Shown piece by piece: positions 1,911-58,747 of a stretch of 64,000 nucleotides of DNA (positions are counted from its first letter, which is position 1; the number at the start of each line of letters is the position of its first letter). The notes beneath the pieces are model-generated. The model ran no database searches, was not told where the DNA came from, and saw nothing but the letters and a program-made list of their open reading frames with translations. The stretch is from Patescibacteria group bacterium (GTDB taxonomy: Bacteria; Patescibacteriota; Patescibacteriia; UBA1558; GWA2-36-10): assembly GCA_041665545.1 (NCBI GenBank), contig JBAYIQ010000001.1, forward strand, positions 137,911 through 201,910, given 5' to 3'. The translations under genes and the position numbers were made by a program.

Positions 1911-2110
1911 TATGCCAAAAAGAAAACTAAAATTTTGGTACCGCAAAATGATGTTACATCAGGAAAATGAGCTGCTTAAAAAATATTCTCGTAAGATTAT
2001 GGTCCATCGCTATCTTAATTTTCTGCCAAAAAAACAGCTTTTAAAAATCATATAGTGCCTGCGAGTCAGGCCTACTGACTAGCGTCCAATCTGGAAACTA
2101 TTTAGTGGGC

Positions 2111-2139
2111 TTGACTTTTTTATATATTTCCATTATACT
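2111..2139 (+). promoter_or_regulatory. putative rpmA promoter TTGACT-N17-TATACT
   Basis: TTGACT 2111-2116, 17-nt spacer, TATACT 2134-2139, 35 nt upstream of rpmA ATG. Confidence 0.5.
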
Positions 2140-2174
2140 ATTTTTACATTTTTAACATCTAATTTAATAAAAGT

Positions 2175-2453
2175 ATGGCACATAAGAAATCCCAAGGATC
2201 TACAACTCTCGGCCGTGATTCCCAAGCCCAGCGTCTAGGAGTCAAGTTATTTGCTGGCCAAGTAGCCAAAGCTGGCTCTATTTTGGTACGCCAAAGAGGC
2301 ACCAAGTTTAAACCGGGCTTGAATGTAAAACGCGGTAAAGATGACACTTTGTTTGCTACAGTTGCTGGCGCAATTAAATTCCGCACAGTCAAAAAACCTC
2401 GTTTTGACAGTAGTCTAAAAAATATGCGCTATATTGATGTAGTCGCCAAATAA
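2175..2453 (+). CDS. rpmA: 50S ribosomal protein L27
   Basis: [24 protein letters not shown]... canonical L27 N-terminus. Confidence 0.95.
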
Positions 2454-4123: not shown

Positions 4124-5070
4124 ATTGGTTCAACTTTTACATATATTAAGCCTGCCCCCAAAGAAGCAATTTGTTTAAAAGCTGTTTTGTCCATATCAAT
4201 CAAACGATTGGTCTTGGACTCTGGCCCATAATCATTGACAGTGACAATAACTGATTTGCCACTCAACAAACGCGTAACTTTCAACTTAGTTCCTTTTGGA
4301 TATTGGCGCGAAGCAGCATAAAGACCATTTTTATACCCAAAGCTACGATACCTAGACTGGTCATAAAAACTAGCCACACCATCATTGGCTGTTTCATCTT
4401 CAAAAACCGCCAAATAAATCGGCCCTGTTAATTTACTGAATGTCTGTTTCAAAAATTTTTCTTCCACATTGTTGTAGGCCCCTAACTTTAACCAAGTTTG
4501 CAATGACGGATCATATTGAAAAATTTGTTTATGCCAATTACTAGTACTTTGATAATAAAATTTTATGGCCAAATCATTTTTTTGAGAATCTAACTGATAA
4601 ACTCTTGATATCAGTTTAATATTTTCTGGCAGTTGGTAATCAGAGTATTCTGCAATATTAACCAGCTCTTTATCTTTGTCAACTACAATTTCTACTGGTA
4701 AAGAAGAACTGTCGGTGTTCTTTTTTAAATAAATTTTGTTATTCTTTATAGTGCTATTATCCAAAACCTGCCAATTATTTTGATCCGGGCTATATAACCA
4801 GGATTCAGCTGAGCTCAAAGAAAAAGCTGGCGTGGAATTTGATGGATAAAGCCCTAACTCAAATACGTTATTTGACACTGGATGCCAATCCACCACCCAC
4901 TGTTTTATTTCCTTATCCCAATCAACTAAAGTCAAATTTATACTGCCGACCGATATTTTATGAAAAAAATCCGTGTTAATAACATCAACATCCGCCTGAG
5001 CTGATGAAGCCAAAATACCAAAAAAACTAAATAGTATTAAATATTTTAATTTGTGTTTTATTTGTACCAT
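4120..5070 (-). CDS. secreted protein with C-terminal RlpA-like double-psi beta-barrel domain
   Basis: Signal peptide; C-terminus GVASFYD...YAASRQYPKGTKLKVTRLLSGKSVIVTVNDYGP matches RlpA/DPBB pattern. Confidence 0.65.
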   Translation of the reverse strand: MVQIKHKLKYLILFSFFGILASSAQADVDVINTDFFHKISVGSINLTLVDWDKEIKQWVVDWHPVSNNVFELGLYPSNSTPAFSLSSAESWLYSPDQNNWQVLDNSTIKNNKIYLKKNTDSSSLPVEIVVDKDKELVNIAEYSDYQLPENIKLISRVYQLDSQKNDLAIKFYYQSTSNWHKQIFQYDPSLQTWLKLGAYNNVEEKFLKQTFSKLTGPIYLAVFEDETANDGVASFYDQSRYRSFGYKNGLYAASRQYPKGTKLKVTRLLSGKSVIVTVNDYGPESKTNRLIDMDKTAFKQIASLGAGLIYVKVEPI

Positions 5071-26377: not shown

Positions 26378-27772
26378 CTACGCTTTTTTTAATTTCAATT
26401 CGTCAAGTTGTTCCTTGCTAACTTCCGATGGCGAATCCATAAGCGGATCCCTATTATCCGTAGTTTTCGGGAAAGCAATGACTTCTTTGATACTCTGTTC
26501 GCCAGCCAAAATCATCAGCAATCTATCCAAACCAAAGGCAATACCGCCATGCGGAGGCACGCCATACTTAAAGGCCTCCATCAAATGTCCAAATTGATTT
26601 TGAATTTCTTTATCGCTATGTCCCAGAGCTTTGAATACTTTTTTCAAAACTTCAGGATCATGAGTACGGATGCTACCGCCAGCCACCTCCGAGCCATTGA
26701 GTACCAAGTCATACTGAAAAGCTTTAATGTCTTTCAAATCACCTTTTTCCACAACCGCTATTTTGTTTGGATCAAAAGCGGTAAAGGGATGATGCACTGC
26801 CCCCCAACGCTTATCACCTTCTTTGTATTCAAACATTGGAAAATCCACAACCCAAGCAAAGGCCAATTCATTATTATCATTTTTGTCTTTACGCAAATCT
26901 GGTTTATCGGAATTATATTTAGATATTGCTTCTTGAAAACTAATACGCGGAAAAGGCGTTTGCTGAATTTTTTTATTTGGTAAAATTTCTTTAACCAAAT
27001 CAATCATTAATTTTTCTGTCAAAACCAAAATGTCTTCTTGTTCCACAAAACTTTGCTCGATATCCAGTTGAGTAAACTCCGCTTGCCTATCTCCTCGCTG
27101 ATCTTCATCGCGGAAACAGCGCACAATCTGGCAATATTTGTCAAAACCAGCCACCATCAACATTTGTTTGTATTGTTGTGGTGATTGAGGTAAAGCATAA
27201 AATTTACCAGGATAATTACGGGATGGCACCAAAAAGTCGCGAGCACCTTCGGGCGTGCTTTTGGAAATGTATGGTGTTTCAATCTCAAGAAAATCCTGTT
27301 TATAAAGTTCATTTCTCAAAAAATTTATTACCTTGTGTCGTAATATAATATTATTTTGCAAACGCTCATGACGCAAATCTAAATAACGATATTTTAAACG
27401 CAATTCTTCATTGGCTTGACGTTCTTCATTGTCAATCTCAAAAGGCGGAGTTTCAGCCGAAGACAAAATTTCTATTTTTTTGGCCAACAACTCTACCCCA
27501 CCAGTAGGCATGTCCTTATTTATCTGTTTAACGCCTCTGGCCTGAACAATACCAGTAATCGCCAAAACAAACTCGGTCCTAACACCAGCCAAAATTGCTT
27601 GGGAAGCTTCATCTAACTCGGCGGGCACAGCTACAACCTGAACAATGCCCCAGCGATCTCGCAGGTCCAAAAAGGCAATTTTGCCCATATTGCGACGAAC
27701 ATTGACCCAACCCTTGAGTAATACTTCTTGGCCAACTAAATTGCTTGTTTCTATTGTTTTTGTTCTTGTCAT
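26378..27772 (-). CDS. aspS: aspartyl-tRNA synthetase, bacterial type lacking the GAD insertion domain
   Basis: OB fold N-terminus; motif 2 FRDEDQRGDRQAEFTQLDIE; SDKPDLRKDKNDNNELAFAWVVDFPMFE joins directly; 464 aa. Confidence 0.85.
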   Translation of the reverse strand: MTRTKTIETSNLVGQEVLLKGWVNVRRNMGKIAFLDLRDRWGIVQVVAVPAELDEASQAILAGVRTEFVLAITGIVQARGVKQINKDMPTGGVELLAKKIEILSSAETPPFEIDNEERQANEELRLKYRYLDLRHERLQNNIILRHKVINFLRNELYKQDFLEIETPYISKSTPEGARDFLVPSRNYPGKFYALPQSPQQYKQMLMVAGFDKYCQIVRCFRDEDQRGDRQAEFTQLDIEQSFVEQEDILVLTEKLMIDLVKEILPNKKIQQTPFPRISFQEAISKYNSDKPDLRKDKNDNNELAFAWVVDFPMFEYKEGDKRWGAVHHPFTAFDPNKIAVVEKGDLKDIKAFQYDLVLNGSEVAGGSIRTHDPEVLKKVFKALGHSDKEIQNQFGHLMEAFKYGVPPHGGIAFGLDRLLMILAGEQSIKEVIAFPKTTDNRDPLMDSPSEVSKEQLDELKLKKA

Positions 27773-27780
27773 AAAATATA

Positions 27781-28083
27781 TTATTTACTATCAGTTTTTA
27801 ACAAAGACCAAATATCACTATTTATGTTTGAAAATAAAGCATGAGCTTCCATTTGATCCTTATCTGCCCTATAAGCATCTACCAACCCATGGCTGGTAAA
27901 ATAAATAGCATCTTGAATGGACTTATAGTGGCTAGACCAATTTTTAAATTTTTCCAAAAGCTCTTTAAAGGCAACTTTTGTTTTATCTTCCACCGCTGAT
28001 TCGTCAATCAAAGAACACCAAAGTAAAAATTTTTCTTCGATATGGCTGTCTGGGGCTTTAAAAATTTTATTTTCTGATAACAT
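27781..28083 (-). CDS. hypothetical protein (100 aa)
   Basis: Clean ORF, host-like composition. Confidence 0.5.
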   Translation of the reverse strand: MLSENKIFKAPDSHIEEKFLLWCSLIDESAVEDKTKVAFKELLEKFKNWSSHYKSIQDAIYFTSHGLVDAYRADKDQMEAHALFSNINSDIWSLLKTDSK

Positions 28084-28094
28084 ATTAATTTTAA

Positions 28095-28170
28095 TGGAGC
28101 CACCCGTCGGAATTGAACCGACAACCTATGGTTTACGATACCATTGCTCTGCCAGTTGAGCTAGGGTGGC
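28095..28170 (-). tRNA. tRNA-Thr (anticodon CGT), CCA encoded
   Basis: GCCACCC/GGGTGGC acceptor, loop ATCGTAA, T arm GTCGGTTCAATTCCGAC. Confidence 0.95.
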
Positions 28171-28192
28171 AAATTTATAACTTTAATTATAA

Positions 28193-28271
28193 GGTTTATC
28201 GCCCAGAGGGCGACCCCGTCCCGCAACGCGAGATGGCGACACCACTGCTCTACCAATTGAGCCCGCCCGGC
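28193..28271 (-). pseudogene. tRNA-Thr-like 5' fragment with GC-rich hairpin inserted in the anticodon loop
   Basis: GCCGGGCGGGCTCAATTGGTAGAGCAGTGGTGTCG + 38-nt insert (contains TCGCCCTCTGGGCGA hairpin) + TAAACC; no T arm; 22 nt upstream of intact tRNA-Thr. Confidence 0.6.
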
Positions 28272-28322
28272 ACGCCGATGGCGTAGCCATGGCGGAAGGG
28301 CTATCTCGGCCCAAGGCCGTCT

Positions 28323-29618
28323 TTATGGCCTTAATCTATAAATCGTCCTAGGAAACGGTATGGTCTCCCGGACATGTTCCAAGCCGCAAACCCAAGCCAC
28401 AATACGCTCTAAGCCAAAGCCAAAACCACCGTGTGGGACCGAACCATATTTTCGCAAATCCAAATACCACTCAAATTCTTTGAAGGGCAATTTATGCTCT
28501 TTGATGCTTTTTAGTATTGTGTCATAGTCATCTTCTCTTTGTGAACCACCGATTATTTCACCATAACCCTCAGGTGCCAACAAATCACTGCAGGCCGCCT
28601 TGTCTTTATCTTTCTGATCACGCTTCATGTAAAAAGCTTTTATCCGGCTTGGATAGTTATTTATAAAAATTGGATTGTCGTATTCTTTGGTCAGCATGGT
28701 TTCATCATCAGCCCCAAAATCATCACCATCTTTGATATCTGAGCCAAGCTTTTGTAATTTTTTTATGGCTTCAGAATAAGTCAAATGATAAAATGGCTTA
28801 TCAATATTTTGCAAAATCTTAACATCACGTTCTAATATTTCAAGTTCTGTTTTATTTTTTTCCAAAACTCGTTTGACCATGTGTCTGATCAATGCCTCTT
28901 GAGTGCCCATATTCTGTGTTAAGTCTACAAAAGCCATTTCAGCGTCCATCATCCAAAATTCTGTTAAGTGGCGTCTGGTCTTGGACTTTTCTGCTCTGAA
29001 AGTCGGACCAAAATCAAAAACGCGTCCATGAGCATAAATAGCTGCCTCTAAATAAAGCTGGCCACTCTGTGACAAATAAGCAGTTTCATCAAAATATTTT
29101 ACCGAAAATAAATCAGTTGTCCCTTCACAAGCACTAGGCGTCAAAATTGGTGAATCAATTTTAATAAAATTATTTTGCGCCATGAATTCATAAGTGGCCT
29201 GAATCAAAGTATTGCGTACGCGCTGGATAGCCCACTGCTTTTTGGAGCGCAACCACAAATGACGATTGTCCAGCAAAAAATCAATGCCATGATCTTTTTT
29301 GCTAATCGGATATTCTTCGGCAATCTGAAAAAAATCAAAATCTTTTACCAAAATTTCATATTCCTCTTTTTTGGGATGCTTGTTAACTAGGCCAATTATT
29401 TTCACCGAAGATTCTAGAGATGCTTTTTGGGCTAGCTCCCATTTGTCTTTTGGCAAATCATCGGCATTGACAATAGCTTGAGAAAAATCCGAGCCATCCC
29501 TAAGTTGCCAAAACATAATTTTGCCAGAAGAACGAAAATTATAAATCCAACAGCGAATCTCTACTTCTTGGCCGACAAATTGAGCTAAATCTTTTAATAA
29601 TATTGCTTGCATAATCAT
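28323..29618 (-). CDS. asnS: asparaginyl-tRNA synthetase
   Basis: FRAEKSKTRRHLTEFWMMDAEMAF motif 2, GGFGFGLERI motif 3; start trimmed to MIMQAILLKD (tracked N-terminus is AT-rich leader). Confidence 0.85.
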   Translation of the reverse strand: MIMQAILLKDLAQFVGQEVEIRCWIYNFRSSGKIMFWQLRDGSDFSQAIVNADDLPKDKWELAQKASLESSVKIIGLVNKHPKKEEYEILVKDFDFFQIAEEYPISKKDHGIDFLLDNRHLWLRSKKQWAIQRVRNTLIQATYEFMAQNNFIKIDSPILTPSACEGTTDLFSVKYFDETAYLSQSGQLYLEAAIYAHGRVFDFGPTFRAEKSKTRRHLTEFWMMDAEMAFVDLTQNMGTQEALIRHMVKRVLEKNKTELEILERDVKILQNIDKPFYHLTYSEAIKKLQKLGSDIKDGDDFGADDETMLTKEYDNPIFINNYPSRIKAFYMKRDQKDKDKAACSDLLAPEGYGEIIGGSQREDDYDTILKSIKEHKLPFKEFEWYLDLRKYGSVPHGGFGFGLERIVAWVCGLEHVRETIPFPRTIYRLRP

Positions 29619-29712
29619 TATTTTTATATGTAAATAATACCTAAAAATACGCTTTATTACAAGTAAGATAACTAAATAAAAAATGCTCAAAAATACCAAC
29701 AAAACATACCCC

Positions 29713-29741: not shown

Positions 29742-29769
29742 ATTTTATTGATCTTCGAAATAACGAGTT

Positions 29770-30103
29770 GGGGGGTGTTGGGACGCTCGAGAAGTCCTGG
29801 GGACACCTGCTAGTTGTGGTCAGGGCCCGAACTGTTTGGGCTCGCTGTAATCCCGCAAAGGTTAGCGGGTGCAGTTTATCAGACCACGGATGGCAATCCT
29901 GATCCTTGTCTGTTGGGACAATGGGGATGGACCCGTCTTATCGTCGTCCCGAGGCCTCGGGCGACCAGCTGGCAGTGCCGATTTTTGAAAAACGTTCCCC
30001 ACAGACGGTGACGTGAAGCGCTCACGTTTCCTAGCGGGGATATCCTTGGCCAGGAGAGAATACAGGCCTCGGCTTACCTTCAGGACTTGTCCTGGCACCC
30101 CCC
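29770..30103 (+). ncRNA. rnpB: RNase P RNA (bacterial type)
   Basis: P1 pairing GGGGGGTGTTGGGAC / GTCCTGGCACCCCCC; CR-I-like CGAGAAGUCCUGGGG; CR-V-like GAGAAUACAGGCCUCGGCUUAC. Confidence 0.75.
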
Positions 30104-30119
30104 GTGTTCCTACCGATGA

Positions 30120-30160
30120 GGAGTCTTTGTCTACACCATGGCAAGACTCCTTTTCTTTTT
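30120..30160 (+). terminator. rnpB terminator
   Basis: GGAGTCTT ... AAGACTCC stem followed by TTTTCTTTTT. Confidence 0.7.
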
Positions 30161-30220
30161 GTTTAAAATAAAGAAATACCGCCGTCGAACCAGTGGGTTC
30201 GATGGCGGTACGAAATGTCC

Positions 30221-30412
30221 CTACACCTTCATGCAGGGAGCGTGAGGTGTGTCGCGATGCAAGCGCAGCTTCTCGGGAGTGATGTTGTTCCCGCACTCCG
30301 CCATACTGCACTTGACGCAATGCTCGCTCTTGAGGTGCCGAAGCCCCCTTTCCGAACGCGGAAGCGTTCTCCTGTTCGCATTGTTCCCCTTGGTGACCTG
30401 CTTCTTGCCCAT
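30221..30412 (-). CDS. high-GC small basic Cys/His-rich protein (63 aa)
   Basis: CAAGGAGGGA RBS 3 nt before ATG 30412; MGKKQVTKGNNANRR...HCVKCSMAEC...HAPC; own promoter and hairpin terminator (30180-30213). Confidence 0.55.
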   Translation of the reverse strand: MGKKQVTKGNNANRRTLPRSERGLRHLKSEHCVKCSMAECGNNITPEKLRLHRDTPHAPCMKV

Positions 30413-30460
30413 GGGTCCCTCCTTGAGATACATGATCACCAACGAAAGAGCAGTCTATAT

Positions 30461-30489
30461 ATTATGTATAGAAATTATTCTTTTGTCAA
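30461..30489 (-). promoter_or_regulatory. promoter of cassette 2 (TTGACA-N17-CATAAT)
   Basis: tgtcaa 30484-30489, attatg 30461-30466 on plus strand. Confidence 0.5.
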
Positions 30490-30547
30490 ACAAACAACCC
30501 GCCCGCCACCGCATTGCGGGGCGAAACGGGTTGAAATTAAAAATAAT

Positions 30548-34994: not shown

Positions 34995-35368
34995 AAAAGA
35001 AAACAGGGAGGACTTTGCCTGATGGCGCGATCCTCCCTGTGCGTGGTACAAGCGGCCATTCGGCCGCGCGGCGTTCGGGCTTGGCCAAACATCCAGACTG
35101 CACCTGTCCAGACCCACTTGTAGACAACGGCGAATTCCGCTGTAGACGAATGGTCGTTGACCTTAGGGCTCCTAGCCGCAATACCCGATATCGGTGGGCT
35201 CCGCTGGCTCGGTATCAGCCAGAACAACGACTATGGCGTTGTTATGAGAAATATGTGGAGGCCCAAGCGCTTGGTATTTGGCCAGCTGACCAGCCGAACC
35301 CGCCAAGGGAAGAGCCGAACAGCGGTCTAGCCGTGGCTTTGGGCCCCCTTGAAAAAAGAGCGTACTAA
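34995..35368 (-). ncRNA. GC-rich structured RNA of unknown class (about 375 nt)
   Basis: Own promoter (35375-35403) and terminator CAGGGAGGA...UCCUCCCUG+U-run (35004-35039); many local hairpins; no ORF with RBS. Confidence 0.6.
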
Positions 35369-37308: not shown

Positions 37309-37480
37309 AAAAAAACTGACCCTAGTCTGTCATTCCCGCGCCCCTCGGTCTTGAGCTCGGGGTCGAGAGAAAGGCGGGAATCTACCATGGTTATGCCTTA
37401 GGGCAAATCAATGGTAGATCCCGGATCACCTGTCCGCCTCTGGCGGAAGTCCGGGATGACAGTGTGAGGTCAGTTTTTTA
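37309..37480. other. cloverleaf-shaped GC-rich structured element (possible ncRNA and compound terminator)
   Basis: A-run, CTGACC/GGTCAG and CTGTCAT/ATGACAG outer stems enclosing three hairpins (TCCCGC/GCGGGA, ATCTACCAT/ATGGTAGAT, CCCGGA/TCCGGG), T-run. Confidence 0.6.
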
Positions 37481-51382: not shown

Positions 51383-51507
51383 CTCGTGTCCCTCGACTCA
51401 CTCCGTTCGCTCGGGACACTCGATTCGCAGGAATGAGAATGGTCGGAGGTGCGATAAAGCACCGTAGACCACGAGTGAGTCTTTTGCAAAGCAAAAGGCG
51501 AATCGAG
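51383..51507 (-). repeat. tRNA-trailer structured element, copy E3 (fused to CCA of tRNA-Lys)
   Basis: 125 nt; near-identical to E1 over the tRNA-proximal ~70 nt; followed by AACCCACUGGGUU+U7 terminator (51347-51372). Confidence 0.7.
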
Positions 51508-58087: not shown

Positions 58088-58139
58088 GAATGGTCGTAGA
58101 CCACGAGTGAGTCTTTTGCGAAGCAAAAGGCGAATCGAG
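58088..58139 (-). repeat. truncated tRNA-trailer element, copy E4
   Basis: GAATGGTCGTAGACCACGAGTGAGTCTTTTGCGAAGCAAAAGGCGAATCGAG = E1/E3 proximal module with its internal hairpin deleted. Confidence 0.65.
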
Positions 58140-58224: not shown

Positions 58225-58301
58225 TGGTGGTCGCACCTGGACTCGAACCAGGGACCTTCGCAATGTGAATGCGACGCTCTAACCAACTGAGCCATGCGAC
58301 C
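58225..58301 (-). tRNA. tRNA-Val (anticodon CAC), CCA encoded
   Basis: GGTCGCA/TGCGACC acceptor, loop TTCACAT, T arm CCTGGTTCGAGTCCAGG. Confidence 0.95.
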
Positions 58302-58531
58302 ATATTAATAACCAACTGCTTGTCCGCCAAAGCTCCAAGGGAGCGACGGCGGAAGCTATATGCCCTTAAATAATAAACTACCGAAAATGGCTTAGCCATC
58401 CGTAGCTCCAAATAAAAATAACTATACTTTATACGTTTTGTCATCCTACTCCGCCAGCTGGCGGATATGGATGACATCCTTCGCACCGCGAAGGATGGTA
58501 AAAACCCTTAGCATTCAAAGCTATTTTCTTT

Positions 58532-58637: not shown

Positions 58638-58747
58638 GGTTGCCTGCCCGCCGAAGCTTTGAGCGTAGCGAGGAGCGAAGGCGGGAGAACCTGATGTCCT
58701 AACCGCTCGCCTCGCTTCGCGAGCGAAGCGGGTTAGACGATGGGGCC
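58638..58747 (-). pseudogene. tRNA-Glu-like 5' fragment with GC-rich hairpins in D loop and after the anticodon
   Basis: GGCCCCATCGTCTAAC + 27-nt insert + GGTTAGGACATCAGGTTCTC + 38-nt insert + CAGGCAACC; no T arm; TTGACT-N17-TTTAAT promoter just upstream (about 58760-58790). Confidence 0.6.

Follow-up and report, generated by a model that had tools for sequence, protein, structure and literature searches.

In a 64-kb stretch of DNA (hereafter the window) from a Patescibacteria (Parcubacteria-type) genome, the spacer between asnS and the adjoining gene for tRNA-Thr(CGT) holds a truncated, interrupted second tRNA-Thr gene, which we refer to as the Thr stump. In our reading, to which we give a probability of roughly 0.7, this stump has no function and is a footprint left by the serial replacement of tRNA genes, with cassettes that bear a nuclease as the probable driver. 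As judged by comparison with related sequences, the spacer is the 5' remnant of the tRNA-Thr(CGT) gene that originally followed asnS (the GCCGAGA allele), and a second, complete allele (GCCACCC), located 22 nt downstream, appears now to supply tRNA-Thr(CGT). All features of the Thr locus lie on the minus strand. Labels from L001 to L155 (e.g., L004) denote compared loci or contigs, mostly from relatives.

Anatomy and identity of the Thr stump

The first 41 nt of a tRNA-Thr(CGT) gene make up the stump; they are spread over positions 28310-28193 as three collinear pieces, with two inserts between them:

28300-28310, minus strand: stump segment 1, nt 1-11, GCCGAGATAGC, 11/11 identical to the GCCGAGA-type tRNA-Thr of L004 and L128
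28261-28299, minus strand: insert 1, a 39-nt hairpin of GC 0.77 in the D stem, between nt 11 and 12
28237-28260, minus strand: stump segment 2, nt 12-35, TCAATTGGTAGAGCAGTGGTGTCG, 21/22 identical to the L004 tRNA-Thr (E = 5e-5)
28199-28236, minus strand: insert 2, a 38-nt double hairpin (from folding) of GC 0.74, between anticodon bases G35 and T36
28193-28198, minus strand: stump segment 3, nt 36-41, TAAACC, where homology to tRNA stops
28171-28192, minus strand: AT-rich spacer of 22 nt, GC 0.05, between the stump and the intact gene
28095-28170, minus strand: intact tRNA-Thr(CGT), GCCACCC allele (ARAGORN; Rfam tRNA, 64.1 bits)

Segment 1 holds the acceptor 5' strand, nt 8-9 and the first two bases of the D stem, and segment 2 holds the remainder of the D arm (GCTCAATTGGTAGAGC, which folds), nt 26, the 5' strand of the anticodon stem (A-GTGGT-GTCG) and the loop as far as G35. 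The D arm and anticodon-arm strand had been recognized in an earlier interpretation made from the DNA letters alone (the sequence-only reading), as had the splitting of the anticodon loop by a 38-nt hairpin insert (28236-28199) ahead of TAAACC (28198-28193) and the start of the intact tRNA-Thr(CGT) 22 nt later, which is exactly its distance past TAAACC. That reading was mistaken in taking GCCGGGC-GG for the acceptor 5' strand; alignment with the stumps of L004 and L008 assigns these bases to the 3' end of insert 1. It also supposed a single insert, overlooking the 39-nt insert in the D stem, and the true nt 1-11 (GCCGAGATAGC) are at 28310-28300. The boundary of insert 1 has a 2-nt ambiguity caused by a GC repeat, and its DNA fold has an energy of -13.9 kcal/mol (z = -3.2). 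Insert 2 consists of CCAYC, a hairpin, GGGG, T, a second hairpin (TCGCCCTCTGGGCGA) and A. Both inserts fold with z-scores from -2.2 to -3.2, and the z-score of the whole spacer is -2.2.

With the inserts removed, the stump is identical to the GCCGAGA-type tRNA-Thr(CGT) at 39/41 positions in L004 and 38/41 in L002, whereas it matches the neighbouring intact gene at only 33/41. In BLAST with the L004 tRNA-Thr as query, two collinear matches were obtained, 28262-28241 at 21/22 (E = 5e-5 in the window) and 28310-28300 at 11/11. The position also agrees, since the first nucleotide of the stump lies 12 nt past the asnS stop and the intact tRNA of relatives begins 7-20 nt past it. The fragment consequently has both the collinear identity to a true tRNA-Thr(CGT) and the orthologous position in relatives that mark the remnant of a tRNA gene. 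Because it is so much closer to the GCCGAGA allele than to its neighbour, we regard it as a displaced resident gene and not as a decayed copy of the adjoining gene. The sequence-only reading of a decayed tRNA-Thr copy therefore stands as to descent from tRNA-Thr(CGT), of which the 5' part alone is present, and falls as to the source, the allele being other than that of the neighbour.

The absence of a T arm after the fragment, also noted earlier, was borne out by a search of the 64-kb window for T-arm motifs, which returned only the T arms of the six intact tRNAs. The stump is without a T arm or acceptor 3' strand, and there is no orphan 3' half within the window; it thus lacks the cloverleaf, complete with these two parts, of a functional tRNA gene. 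In its default and intron modes ARAGORN made no call on 28193-28310, and neither did Rfam RF00005 at E<=10; at its loosest threshold ARAGORN gave one unassigned call on the fragment (the lowered-threshold ARAGORN and Rfam E<=10 runs were made on 27700-28700). Silence of the tRNA finders is expected for a gene without its 3' half. Of the two checks of tRNA ancestry that had been suggested, the tools were accordingly mute and the alignments clear. The stump now probably does nothing as a tRNA. At most it may be transcribed as a structured leader or as a 3' tail of asnS, to be removed by RNase P at the 5' end of the intact tRNA.

No consensus promoter was found between the stump and the intact tRNA-Thr. 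The 22-nt spacer was examined as a possible copy of the asnS 3' end, which would have indicated simple tandem duplication or an import junction, and this was rejected as its similarity was not above that of shuffles (p = 0.53 for the window); the same was found for the spacers of L131, L004 and L001.

The asnS-tRNA-Thr locus in related genomes

asnS encodes an asparaginyl-tRNA synthetase that is 63-90% identical to homologues in metagenome-assembled genomes (MAGs) of Patescibacteria. The gene and the hairpin at its end are as follows:

28323-29612, minus strand: coding sequence of asnS (homologues 63-90%; Pfam tRNA-synt_2)
28313-28332, minus strand: hairpin AAGGCC-ataaagac-GGCCTT overlapping the asnS stop, read from the sequence and folded

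The start is placed at the ATG at 29612 (the mechanically defined open reading frame, ORF, reaches a TTG at 29702) and the stop, TAA, is at 28325-28323. The hairpins said to follow the asnS stop are present (AAGGCC..GGCCTT at 28332-28313), and the position of the stop-overlapping hairpin is conserved in L003, L004, L005, L006 and L128; in relatives the tRNA directly follows it. The spacer between asnS and the tRNA (28322-28171) is 152 nt long with a GC content of 0.58, rising to 0.67 in the relic part, against 0.40 for the window. An identical sequence, base for base, is present in an independent assembly (L126, read set SRR6484324), and the Thr-locus sequence is thus no assembly artefact.

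The order asnS, tRNA-Thr(CGT) is a conserved arrangement among relatives, and examination of the locus in related MAGs, as the sequence-only reading had advised, yielded stumps, nested genes and intact GCCGAGA tRNAs at the orthologous site. Only an intact tRNA follows asnS in L003, L005, L006, L013, L026, L027, L128 and L133. In the more distant relatives GCCGAGA is the sole allele, from which we take the stump to be the old resident and the GCCACCC gene the newcomer; among closer relatives L127 and L128 have the GCCGAGA allele intact. The intact tRNA-Thr(CGT) of the window is 98.7% identical to the tRNA of L005, where the complementary half of the arrangement is found: an intact GCCACCC gene and then the 3' remainder of a GCCGAGA-type gene. 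Stumps like that of the window are present in L001, L004, L131 and L135, each with nt 1-41, an insert at 35/36, a short AT-rich spacer and an intact gene, and those of L001, L004 and L131 have the same end point as the window stump.

A more elaborate arrangement was observed in L008, L017 and L036, in which an intact tRNA-Thr is situated within the D loop of a dead tRNA-Thr and flanked by complementary GC-rich arms; in L036 the nesting has three layers. The nestings seen are of ACCC, GACT or GATG within GAGA, of GACT within ACCC, and of GATG, GACG or GGAA within GACT. These orders contain no cycle, as would be expected for serial replacement. The sole tRNA-Thr(CGT) of L010 (a Komeilibacteria MAG, ~4310-4440) lies between complementary GC-rich arms like the ones that flank the inner genes in L008, L017 and L036, with no outer tRNA; these arms may be a processing stem or all that remains of an outer gene.

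No insert-bearing tRNA copy that we read stands alone: a few hundred nucleotides away at most, there is an intact gene for the same isoacceptor. Nearly every stump that keeps the anticodon loop has an insert there, the ends of the stumps cluster at nt 41/42 or in the D loop after GGTA, and in L118 and L100 the anticodon arm plus the element is directly duplicated on both flanks of the inner gene. These three facts argue that the insertion in the anticodon loop is part of the replacement event and not later decay. In the 3' remainders of L017, L005 and L036, which derive from different alleles, the T loop is replaced by a GC hairpin (GTC-CCGC-nnn-GCGG-GAC), a fourth recurrent site of hairpin substitution.

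The locus is also a recombination junction. L004 and L131 have asnS genes that are 93% identical, yet their stump alleles, inserts, spacers and intact alleles all differ, and on the aspS side identity is down to 81%. asnS itself is mosaic: its first half is ~90% identical to L001 and L003, whereas for its second half the identity is 67-82% (L001) and 71-87% (L003), which indicates recombination breakpoints within the gene. Between the window and L004, asnS identity does not rise towards the 3' end and conforms to general mosaicism only, and a recent co-transfer of the asnS 3' end with the stump was rejected, as that end is not unusually similar. Upstream of asnS, 29760-30540 (minus strand) is GC-rich relative to the genome, with short ORFs only and several palindromes; the ORF at 29862-30320 has no Pfam match.

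GC-rich hairpin elements in dead tRNA copies

Both Thr inserts are GC-rich palindromes, with GC of 0.74-0.77 against 0.40 for the genome. A homologue of insert 1, 87.5% identical, occupies the same site in L004, and L008 also has it there. Insert 2 shares its site and architecture with the CCACCGCC-type element of L001, L004, L131, L036 and the window's own tRNA-Tyr stump. This element, 36 nt in length (CCACCGCC(A/G)GCGGGCGGGGTGCCGCCCGAGGCGGCA), interrupts the L001 and L131 Thr stumps at 35/36 and recurs base for base at 34/35 of the window's tRNA-Tyr stump, these copies being identical or 1 nt different. Near-identical copies elsewhere were seen for the CCACCGCC-type element, and insert 1 of the window has the one same-site homologue in L004. 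A second family (CCGCC-TTCGCT...AGCTTCGGCGG-CAGG) is represented in the window's Glu stump, the D-loop insert of L001 and the stump of L002.

A metagenome scan with the first 20 nt of the 36-nt element gave 45 loci. Those of high GC were discounted, as they match by chance within coding sequence; of the low-GC loci, some two thirds are tRNA-derived DNA, namely Thr(TGT), Tyr, Ser and the T loop of Leu, and each copy in a tRNA context adjoins an intact gene for the same tRNA. In such contexts the insertion point always falls after G and before (T/A)A. In the Leu T loop the orientation is reversed (one copy; L123, reversed relative to its tRNA). The second hairpin of the element has compensatory changes, with GC 6, CG 5 and UA 1 at one pair, the examples having been picked by a fixed 20-nt pattern and this hairpin having been mis-registered by MAFFT. 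Presence/absence differences were also found: the L004 stump has in its D loop a perfect palindrome of 20 nt that the window lacks, and the D-loop insert of L001 is absent in L131.

On these grounds the Thr inserts would belong to recurring families of GC-rich palindromic elements of dead tRNA copies across Parcubacteria, as opposed to random decay, and the copies and presence/absence differences suggest small non-coding elements behaving as mobile units at the DNA level. The window contains 11 perfect GC hairpins against 2.3 expected, and 9/11 are intergenic. Two of the same unit type as the tRNA-stump hairpins, TCGCCCacaGGGCGA and CCGCCCtttGGGCGG (minus strand), lie adjacent to one another in an intergenic region at 1249-1284 that is not beside a tRNA. 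Rfam on ten element-bearing loci reported tRNAs only, and a Pfam scan of ten other window ORFs, GC-rich blocks included, found no transposase and no integrase. A phage origin was considered and rejected: a scan of viral contigs with the 36-nt element gave one chance match, on a 72%-GC contig, and the GCCACCC allele gave none.

Stumps at other tRNA genes of the window

Four of the six tRNA genes of the window (Thr(CGT), Tyr, Glu and Val) have a dead stump upstream. The sequence-only reading had reported the same pattern at Tyr and Glu; comparable upstream stumps are indeed present at both, and tRNA-Val is a further case. The features concerned are:

20234-20311, minus strand: Tyr stump (GGGTCGG allele, nt 1-34), the 36-nt element CCACCGCCGGCGGGCGGGGTGCCGCCCGAGGCGGCA (20276-20241), then TAAATCT
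19880-19965, minus strand: intact tRNA-Tyr
58638-58747, minus strand: Glu stump (GGCCCCA allele) with a 30-nt D-loop hairpin and a GC-rich insert of ~40 nt after the anticodon
58532-58606, minus strand: intact tRNA-Glu(CTC)
58309-58365, minus strand: Val stump (GGGCATA allele), which breaks off within the D loop and carries a hairpin insert of 31 nt

The Tyr stump matches the L082 tRNA-Tyr at 31/35 (E = 1.5e-5) and the Glu stump has a partial BLAST match of 18/20; the 3' end of the Glu insert resembles the D-loop insert of the L001 Thr stump. The Val stump ends 8 nt before the intact tRNA-Val (58225-58301) and its hairpin folds at -10.8 kcal/mol (z = -3.9); with a 10-nt exact match only, it is the weakest of the four assignments. 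We conclude from these alignments that the architecture of the Thr stump recurs at Tyr and Glu, probably at Val, and widely in relatives.

Two further features adjoin tRNA genes of the window. A 51-nt repeat (CTCGATTCGCCTTTTGCTTCGCAAAAGTCTCACTCGTGGTCTACGGTGCTT) is present in three copies of 96-100% identity (19613-19663, 51457-51507 and 58095-58139, minus strand), two of which start right after the CCA of tRNA-Thr(GGT) and tRNA-Lys and the third ~85 nt past tRNA-Val; related GC-rich trailers starting with CTCGA follow tRNA-Thr in L002 and L003, and the repeat may act as a trailer or terminator, or may be a further small element. The GC-rich spacer of ~135 nt between tRNA-Tyr and tRNA-Thr(GGT) (19745-19880, minus strand) is highly self-complementary, ATTCGACTCC...GGAGTCGAAT enclosing several hairpins, and contains a motif similar to the 51-nt repeat.

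A GIY-YIG nuclease gene beside tRNA-Tyr

Between the Tyr stump and the intact tRNA-Tyr is a small ORF:

19983-20222, minus strand: GIY-YIG nuclease ORF of 80 aa (Pfam PF01541, E = 2.7e-12)

The protein has no PHROG or NCBIfam match. At the tRNA-Ser of L118 the order is the same (stump with element, GIY-YIG, intact tRNA); L082 and L100 have orders akin to it, and in L003 and L036 a GIY-YIG ORF comes after the Thr cluster. Homologues were then chosen by protein similarity alone (62-88% identity, three clusters, 16 loci fetched), and in all 14 of the 16 loci that were scanned for tRNAs an intact tRNA-Tyr lies 3-250 nt downstream of the ORF (14/14). In the cluster representatives read (L141/L142, L151/L152 and L155), a Tyr stump with a GC-rich insert ending TGCCGCC-nnn-GGCGGCA is situated just upstream.

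From the hairpin element rightwards the cassettes of L141 and L142 are nearly the same, while the 5' halves of their stumps differ and the upstream DNA is unrelated; the identity over the whole 1,055-nt BLAST piece, differing stump halves included, is 97%. Of the cassettes, that of Tyr alone was seen in different resident contexts, the sign of mobility. Two tRNA-Tyr alleles are common to the window and L155, but the allele of the stump in the first is that of the intact gene in the second, and vice versa; L151 and L155 contain tandem repeats of partial copies. In L100, a tRNA-Tyr (2105-2345, minus strand) with a group I intron-like insertion of ~210 nt after the anticodon comes right after a GIY-YIG ORF; it received no ARAGORN call and no Rfam call at the gathering threshold.

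A GIY-YIG gene thus adjoins the stump at the window's Tyr locus, whereas at the Thr locus stump and intact gene are separated by the 22-nt spacer. A 100-aa ORF (27781-28083) adjoins the intact tRNA-Thr, with no Pfam, PHROG or NCBIfam match. As there is no such nuclease gene at the Thr locus, a nuclease-driven origin of the Thr stump is proposed by analogy.

Proposed mechanism and alternative explanations

We propose that an incoming cassette would consist of a replacement tRNA, often a GIY-YIG endonuclease gene, and a GC-rich hairpin element as its border. Homing-like break-and-repair would bring it into the anticodon arm or the D loop of the resident gene, and the event would be tolerated because a working copy is supplied as the resident gene is inactivated. 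The hairpin element would mark either the border of the cassette or the inactivation, and repeated rounds would produce nested dead genes and rapid allele turnover. The Tyr locus keeps a nuclease gene; at the Thr locus it may have been lost or never present, or the nuclease may have acted in trans.

Several observations weigh against this explanation. There is no nuclease, transposase or integrase gene at the Thr locus, and no enzyme that moves the hairpin elements was found, the ORFs scanned (part of the window) including no transposase or RAYT-like gene. Insert 2 of the window is like the widespread element in site and architecture only, its sequence having no match among the compared data. 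The intact replacement gene keeps the same anticodon-loop sequence, which is the presumed target, and immunity of the cassette would consequently need allele-specific recognition. The stump with insert 1 is 87-95% identical between the window and L004 although the four-fold sites of asnS are saturated (0.42), and by this comparison the stump seems more conserved than expected of a long-dead relic. Such conservation could reflect parallel recent site-specific events, exchange of modules or selection on the stump.

A bolder form of the same explanation, to which we would give somewhat less than even odds, is that Parcubacteria harbour undescribed selfish tRNA-gene cassettes (a GC-rich hairpin, often a minimal GIY-YIG gene, and a complete replacement tRNA) that home into the anticodon arm or D loop of the resident gene for the same tRNA, inactivate it and become indispensable as the source of its sole working copy. 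Competing variants with different tRNA alleles would replace one another, and the Thr stump would be one footprint of this competition. The reciprocal replacement of tRNA-Tyr in the window and L155, the nested tRNA genes and the fast allele turnover fit this proposal. In a still bolder variant, the stumps may be retained as silent cassettes for nuclease-triggered allele switching.

Among the alternatives is local tandem duplication of the neighbouring tRNA-Thr followed by ordinary decay, through 3' deletion and random insertions, with no incoming allele or nuclease. In its favour, the stump and intact gene are of the same allele in L004, L101 and L142, and in L151 a segment has truly been duplicated in tandem, along with 85 nt of the flank upstream. 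For the window we consider it unlikely: at 33/41 to its neighbour and 39/41 to the other allele the stump has the wrong parent, and the GCCGAGA allele is intact in still closer relatives (L127, L128); the spacer is no copy of the DNA upstream of the tRNA; the inserts recur at fixed sites and are from shared families, with those of the loop near-universal; and stumps tend to break off either at nt 41/42 or within the D loop.

Also doubtful, in our estimation, is retention of the stump for a function, either as a structured RNA (a protector of the asnS 3' end or a tRNA leader) or as a silent cassette for gene conversion after a nuclease cut. Many relatives have no stump at all, either half is freely lost (compare the window with L005), and the z-score for the fold of the whole spacer is only -2.2. 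It is true that the stump and insert 1 are far better conserved among the window, L004 and L008 than neutral sites, that the tRNA-Tyr alleles of the window and L155 have swapped stump and intact roles, and that hairpins are retained through compensatory changes, although such changes in a palindrome are equally expected of an element that is mobile at the DNA level.

The anticodon-loop region of tRNA genes is a classical place of crossover at the attB sites of tyrosine integrases, which raises the question of whether the stump is the attachment-site remnant of an integrase-mediated element, later mostly deleted. In Thr(CGT), Thr(TGT) and Tyr stumps the tRNA sequence runs out right at nt 41-42, on the 3' side of the anticodon stem, and the direct duplication of the anticodon arm that flanks the inner genes of L118 and L100 would suit such an origin. 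We nevertheless judge it very improbable, as integrated elements normally restore the 3' part of the gene and leave a 3' remnant, whereas here it is the 5' part that is left, with only 22 nt between it and a gene that is itself complete, has a 3' strand to match and belongs to another allele; nor was an integrase present at any locus read or in the window ORFs scanned.

The last alternative, that the fragment is a working tRNA gene with small introns or one part of an archaea-like split tRNA whose 3' half is elsewhere, is already close to refuted. In its favour, the D-arm and anticodon-loop regions that hold its inserts are those in which archaeal introns are found, and the outer genes of L008 and L036 keep perfectly complementary acceptor strands. 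Group I introns of Patescibacteria also make use of the 35/36 site (PMC13011429). Against it, there is no 3' half or T arm in the 64 kb, and an intact gene with the same anticodon always adjoins. The 38-39-nt inserts lack a group I core and gave no Rfam match at E<=10, and insert 2 is preceded by G and not U. One copy of the element is reversed relative to its tRNA (L123), and the T loop of some outer copies is replaced by a hairpin (L017, L005, L036).

Other GC-rich regions of the window

Three further sets of GC-rich sequences were noted. A non-coding stretch of ~340 nt between two genes (35015-35355, minus strand) has several strong hairpins and no Rfam match at the gathering threshold, and may be an unrecognised structured RNA. 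An intergenic element of nested hairpins at 37330-37460 (minus strand) comprises two blocks, the first being CATCCCGGA...TCCGCCagaGGCGGA...TCCGGGATC, and Rfam gave no match to it. Two blocks with GC of 0.54-0.56 in the 0.40 genome (12760-14080 and 55900-57300) have long ORFs without a Pfam match and may be foreign DNA.

Significance

The single stump is modest and it is the pattern behind it that is of interest. Patescibacteria genomes are tiny, yet in these 64 kb four of six tRNA genes have a stump, and such stumps and nested tRNA genes, being invisible to tRNA finders, are a matter for annotation. Stumps also break assemblies at tRNA loci, as in L126, the contig of which stops inside the intact gene. 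With regard to genome evolution, tRNA-Thr modules differ between neighbouring strains whose asnS is 93% identical, and asnS itself is mosaic; in this clade, then, tRNA loci are junctions of recombination and places of rapid allele replacement. If the cassette model is true, it would describe a homing element that is aimed at the tRNA genes of a cellular genome and needs no splicing, since the substitute for the destroyed gene comes along, and it would offer a testable system of an 80-aa nuclease, a 36-nt hairpin element and defined target sites. In a full-text literature search on Patescibacteria we found no tRNA stumps, nested tRNA genes, tRNA pseudogenes or palindromic elements, the work retrieved being on group I introns only.

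Comparison with known systems

The defining features of a working tRNA are missing from the stump, and so are those of a group I intron, of split or multi-intron tRNAs and of an integrase remnant. The group I introns at position 35/36 of Patescibacteria tRNA genes are self-splicing, hundreds of nucleotides in length and located in complete, needed genes (PMC13011429). They share with the Thr stump the phylum and the unusual site in the anticodon loop, and in both cases tRNA finders miss the gene; the window insert differs in being a 38-nt hairpin preceded by G35, with no 3' exon. At the integration sites of prophages and islands, 3' tRNA remnants are found kilobases from the intact gene with an integrase between them. 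The likeness there is a partial tRNA duplicate beside an intact one, whereas the Thr stump is a 5' remnant, 22 nt away, with no integrase.

Closer in logic are mobile endonuclease ORFs that bring a replacement piece of a gene and leave the resident piece as a pseudogene (e.g., the insertion in the mitochondrial atp6 of Allomyces). In both, an insertion that would destroy an essential gene carries a substitute, and the displaced remnant stays beside the working hybrid or new copy; here the target would be a tRNA gene, the cassette would supply an entire tRNA and not just a gene end, and remnants would nest through repeated rounds.

The hairpin elements are like the GC clusters, double-hairpin elements and repetitive hairpin elements of mitochondria (PMC4478555, PMC2800124) in being non-coding GC-rich palindromes of 30-50 nt in an AT-rich genome, with near-identical copies at unrelated sites, presence/absence differences and compensatory change. 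They differ in that their copy number in the window is low and the copies are concentrated in dead tRNAs at three or four fixed positions instead of being dispersed among spacers. REP/MITE-like palindromes (repetitive extragenic palindromes and miniature inverted-repeat transposable elements) of bacteria are small GC-rich hairpin units of the same type.

SegB, a phage GIY-YIG endonuclease, cuts inside tRNA genes and drives the recombination-dependent duplication of a segment containing tRNA-Tyr and segB (PMC13096335). A small GIY-YIG gene is likewise situated beside tRNA-Tyr in the window, and the order of partial copy, GIY-YIG and intact gene resembles the products of a SegB-type event, as do the tandem copies of L151 and L155. 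There are differences: the genome here is that of a cellular Patescibacteria organism and not a T-even phage tRNA cluster, the window protein is a predicted nuclease known from sequence and comprises the 80-aa catalytic domain only, the duplicated copies are inactivated by GC-rich hairpins with alleles serially replaced and genes nested, and the Thr stump has no nuclease gene. By analogy, the stump would work most like two of these systems combined, the GIY-YIG cassettes of T-even phages and the GC-rich hairpin elements of organelles.

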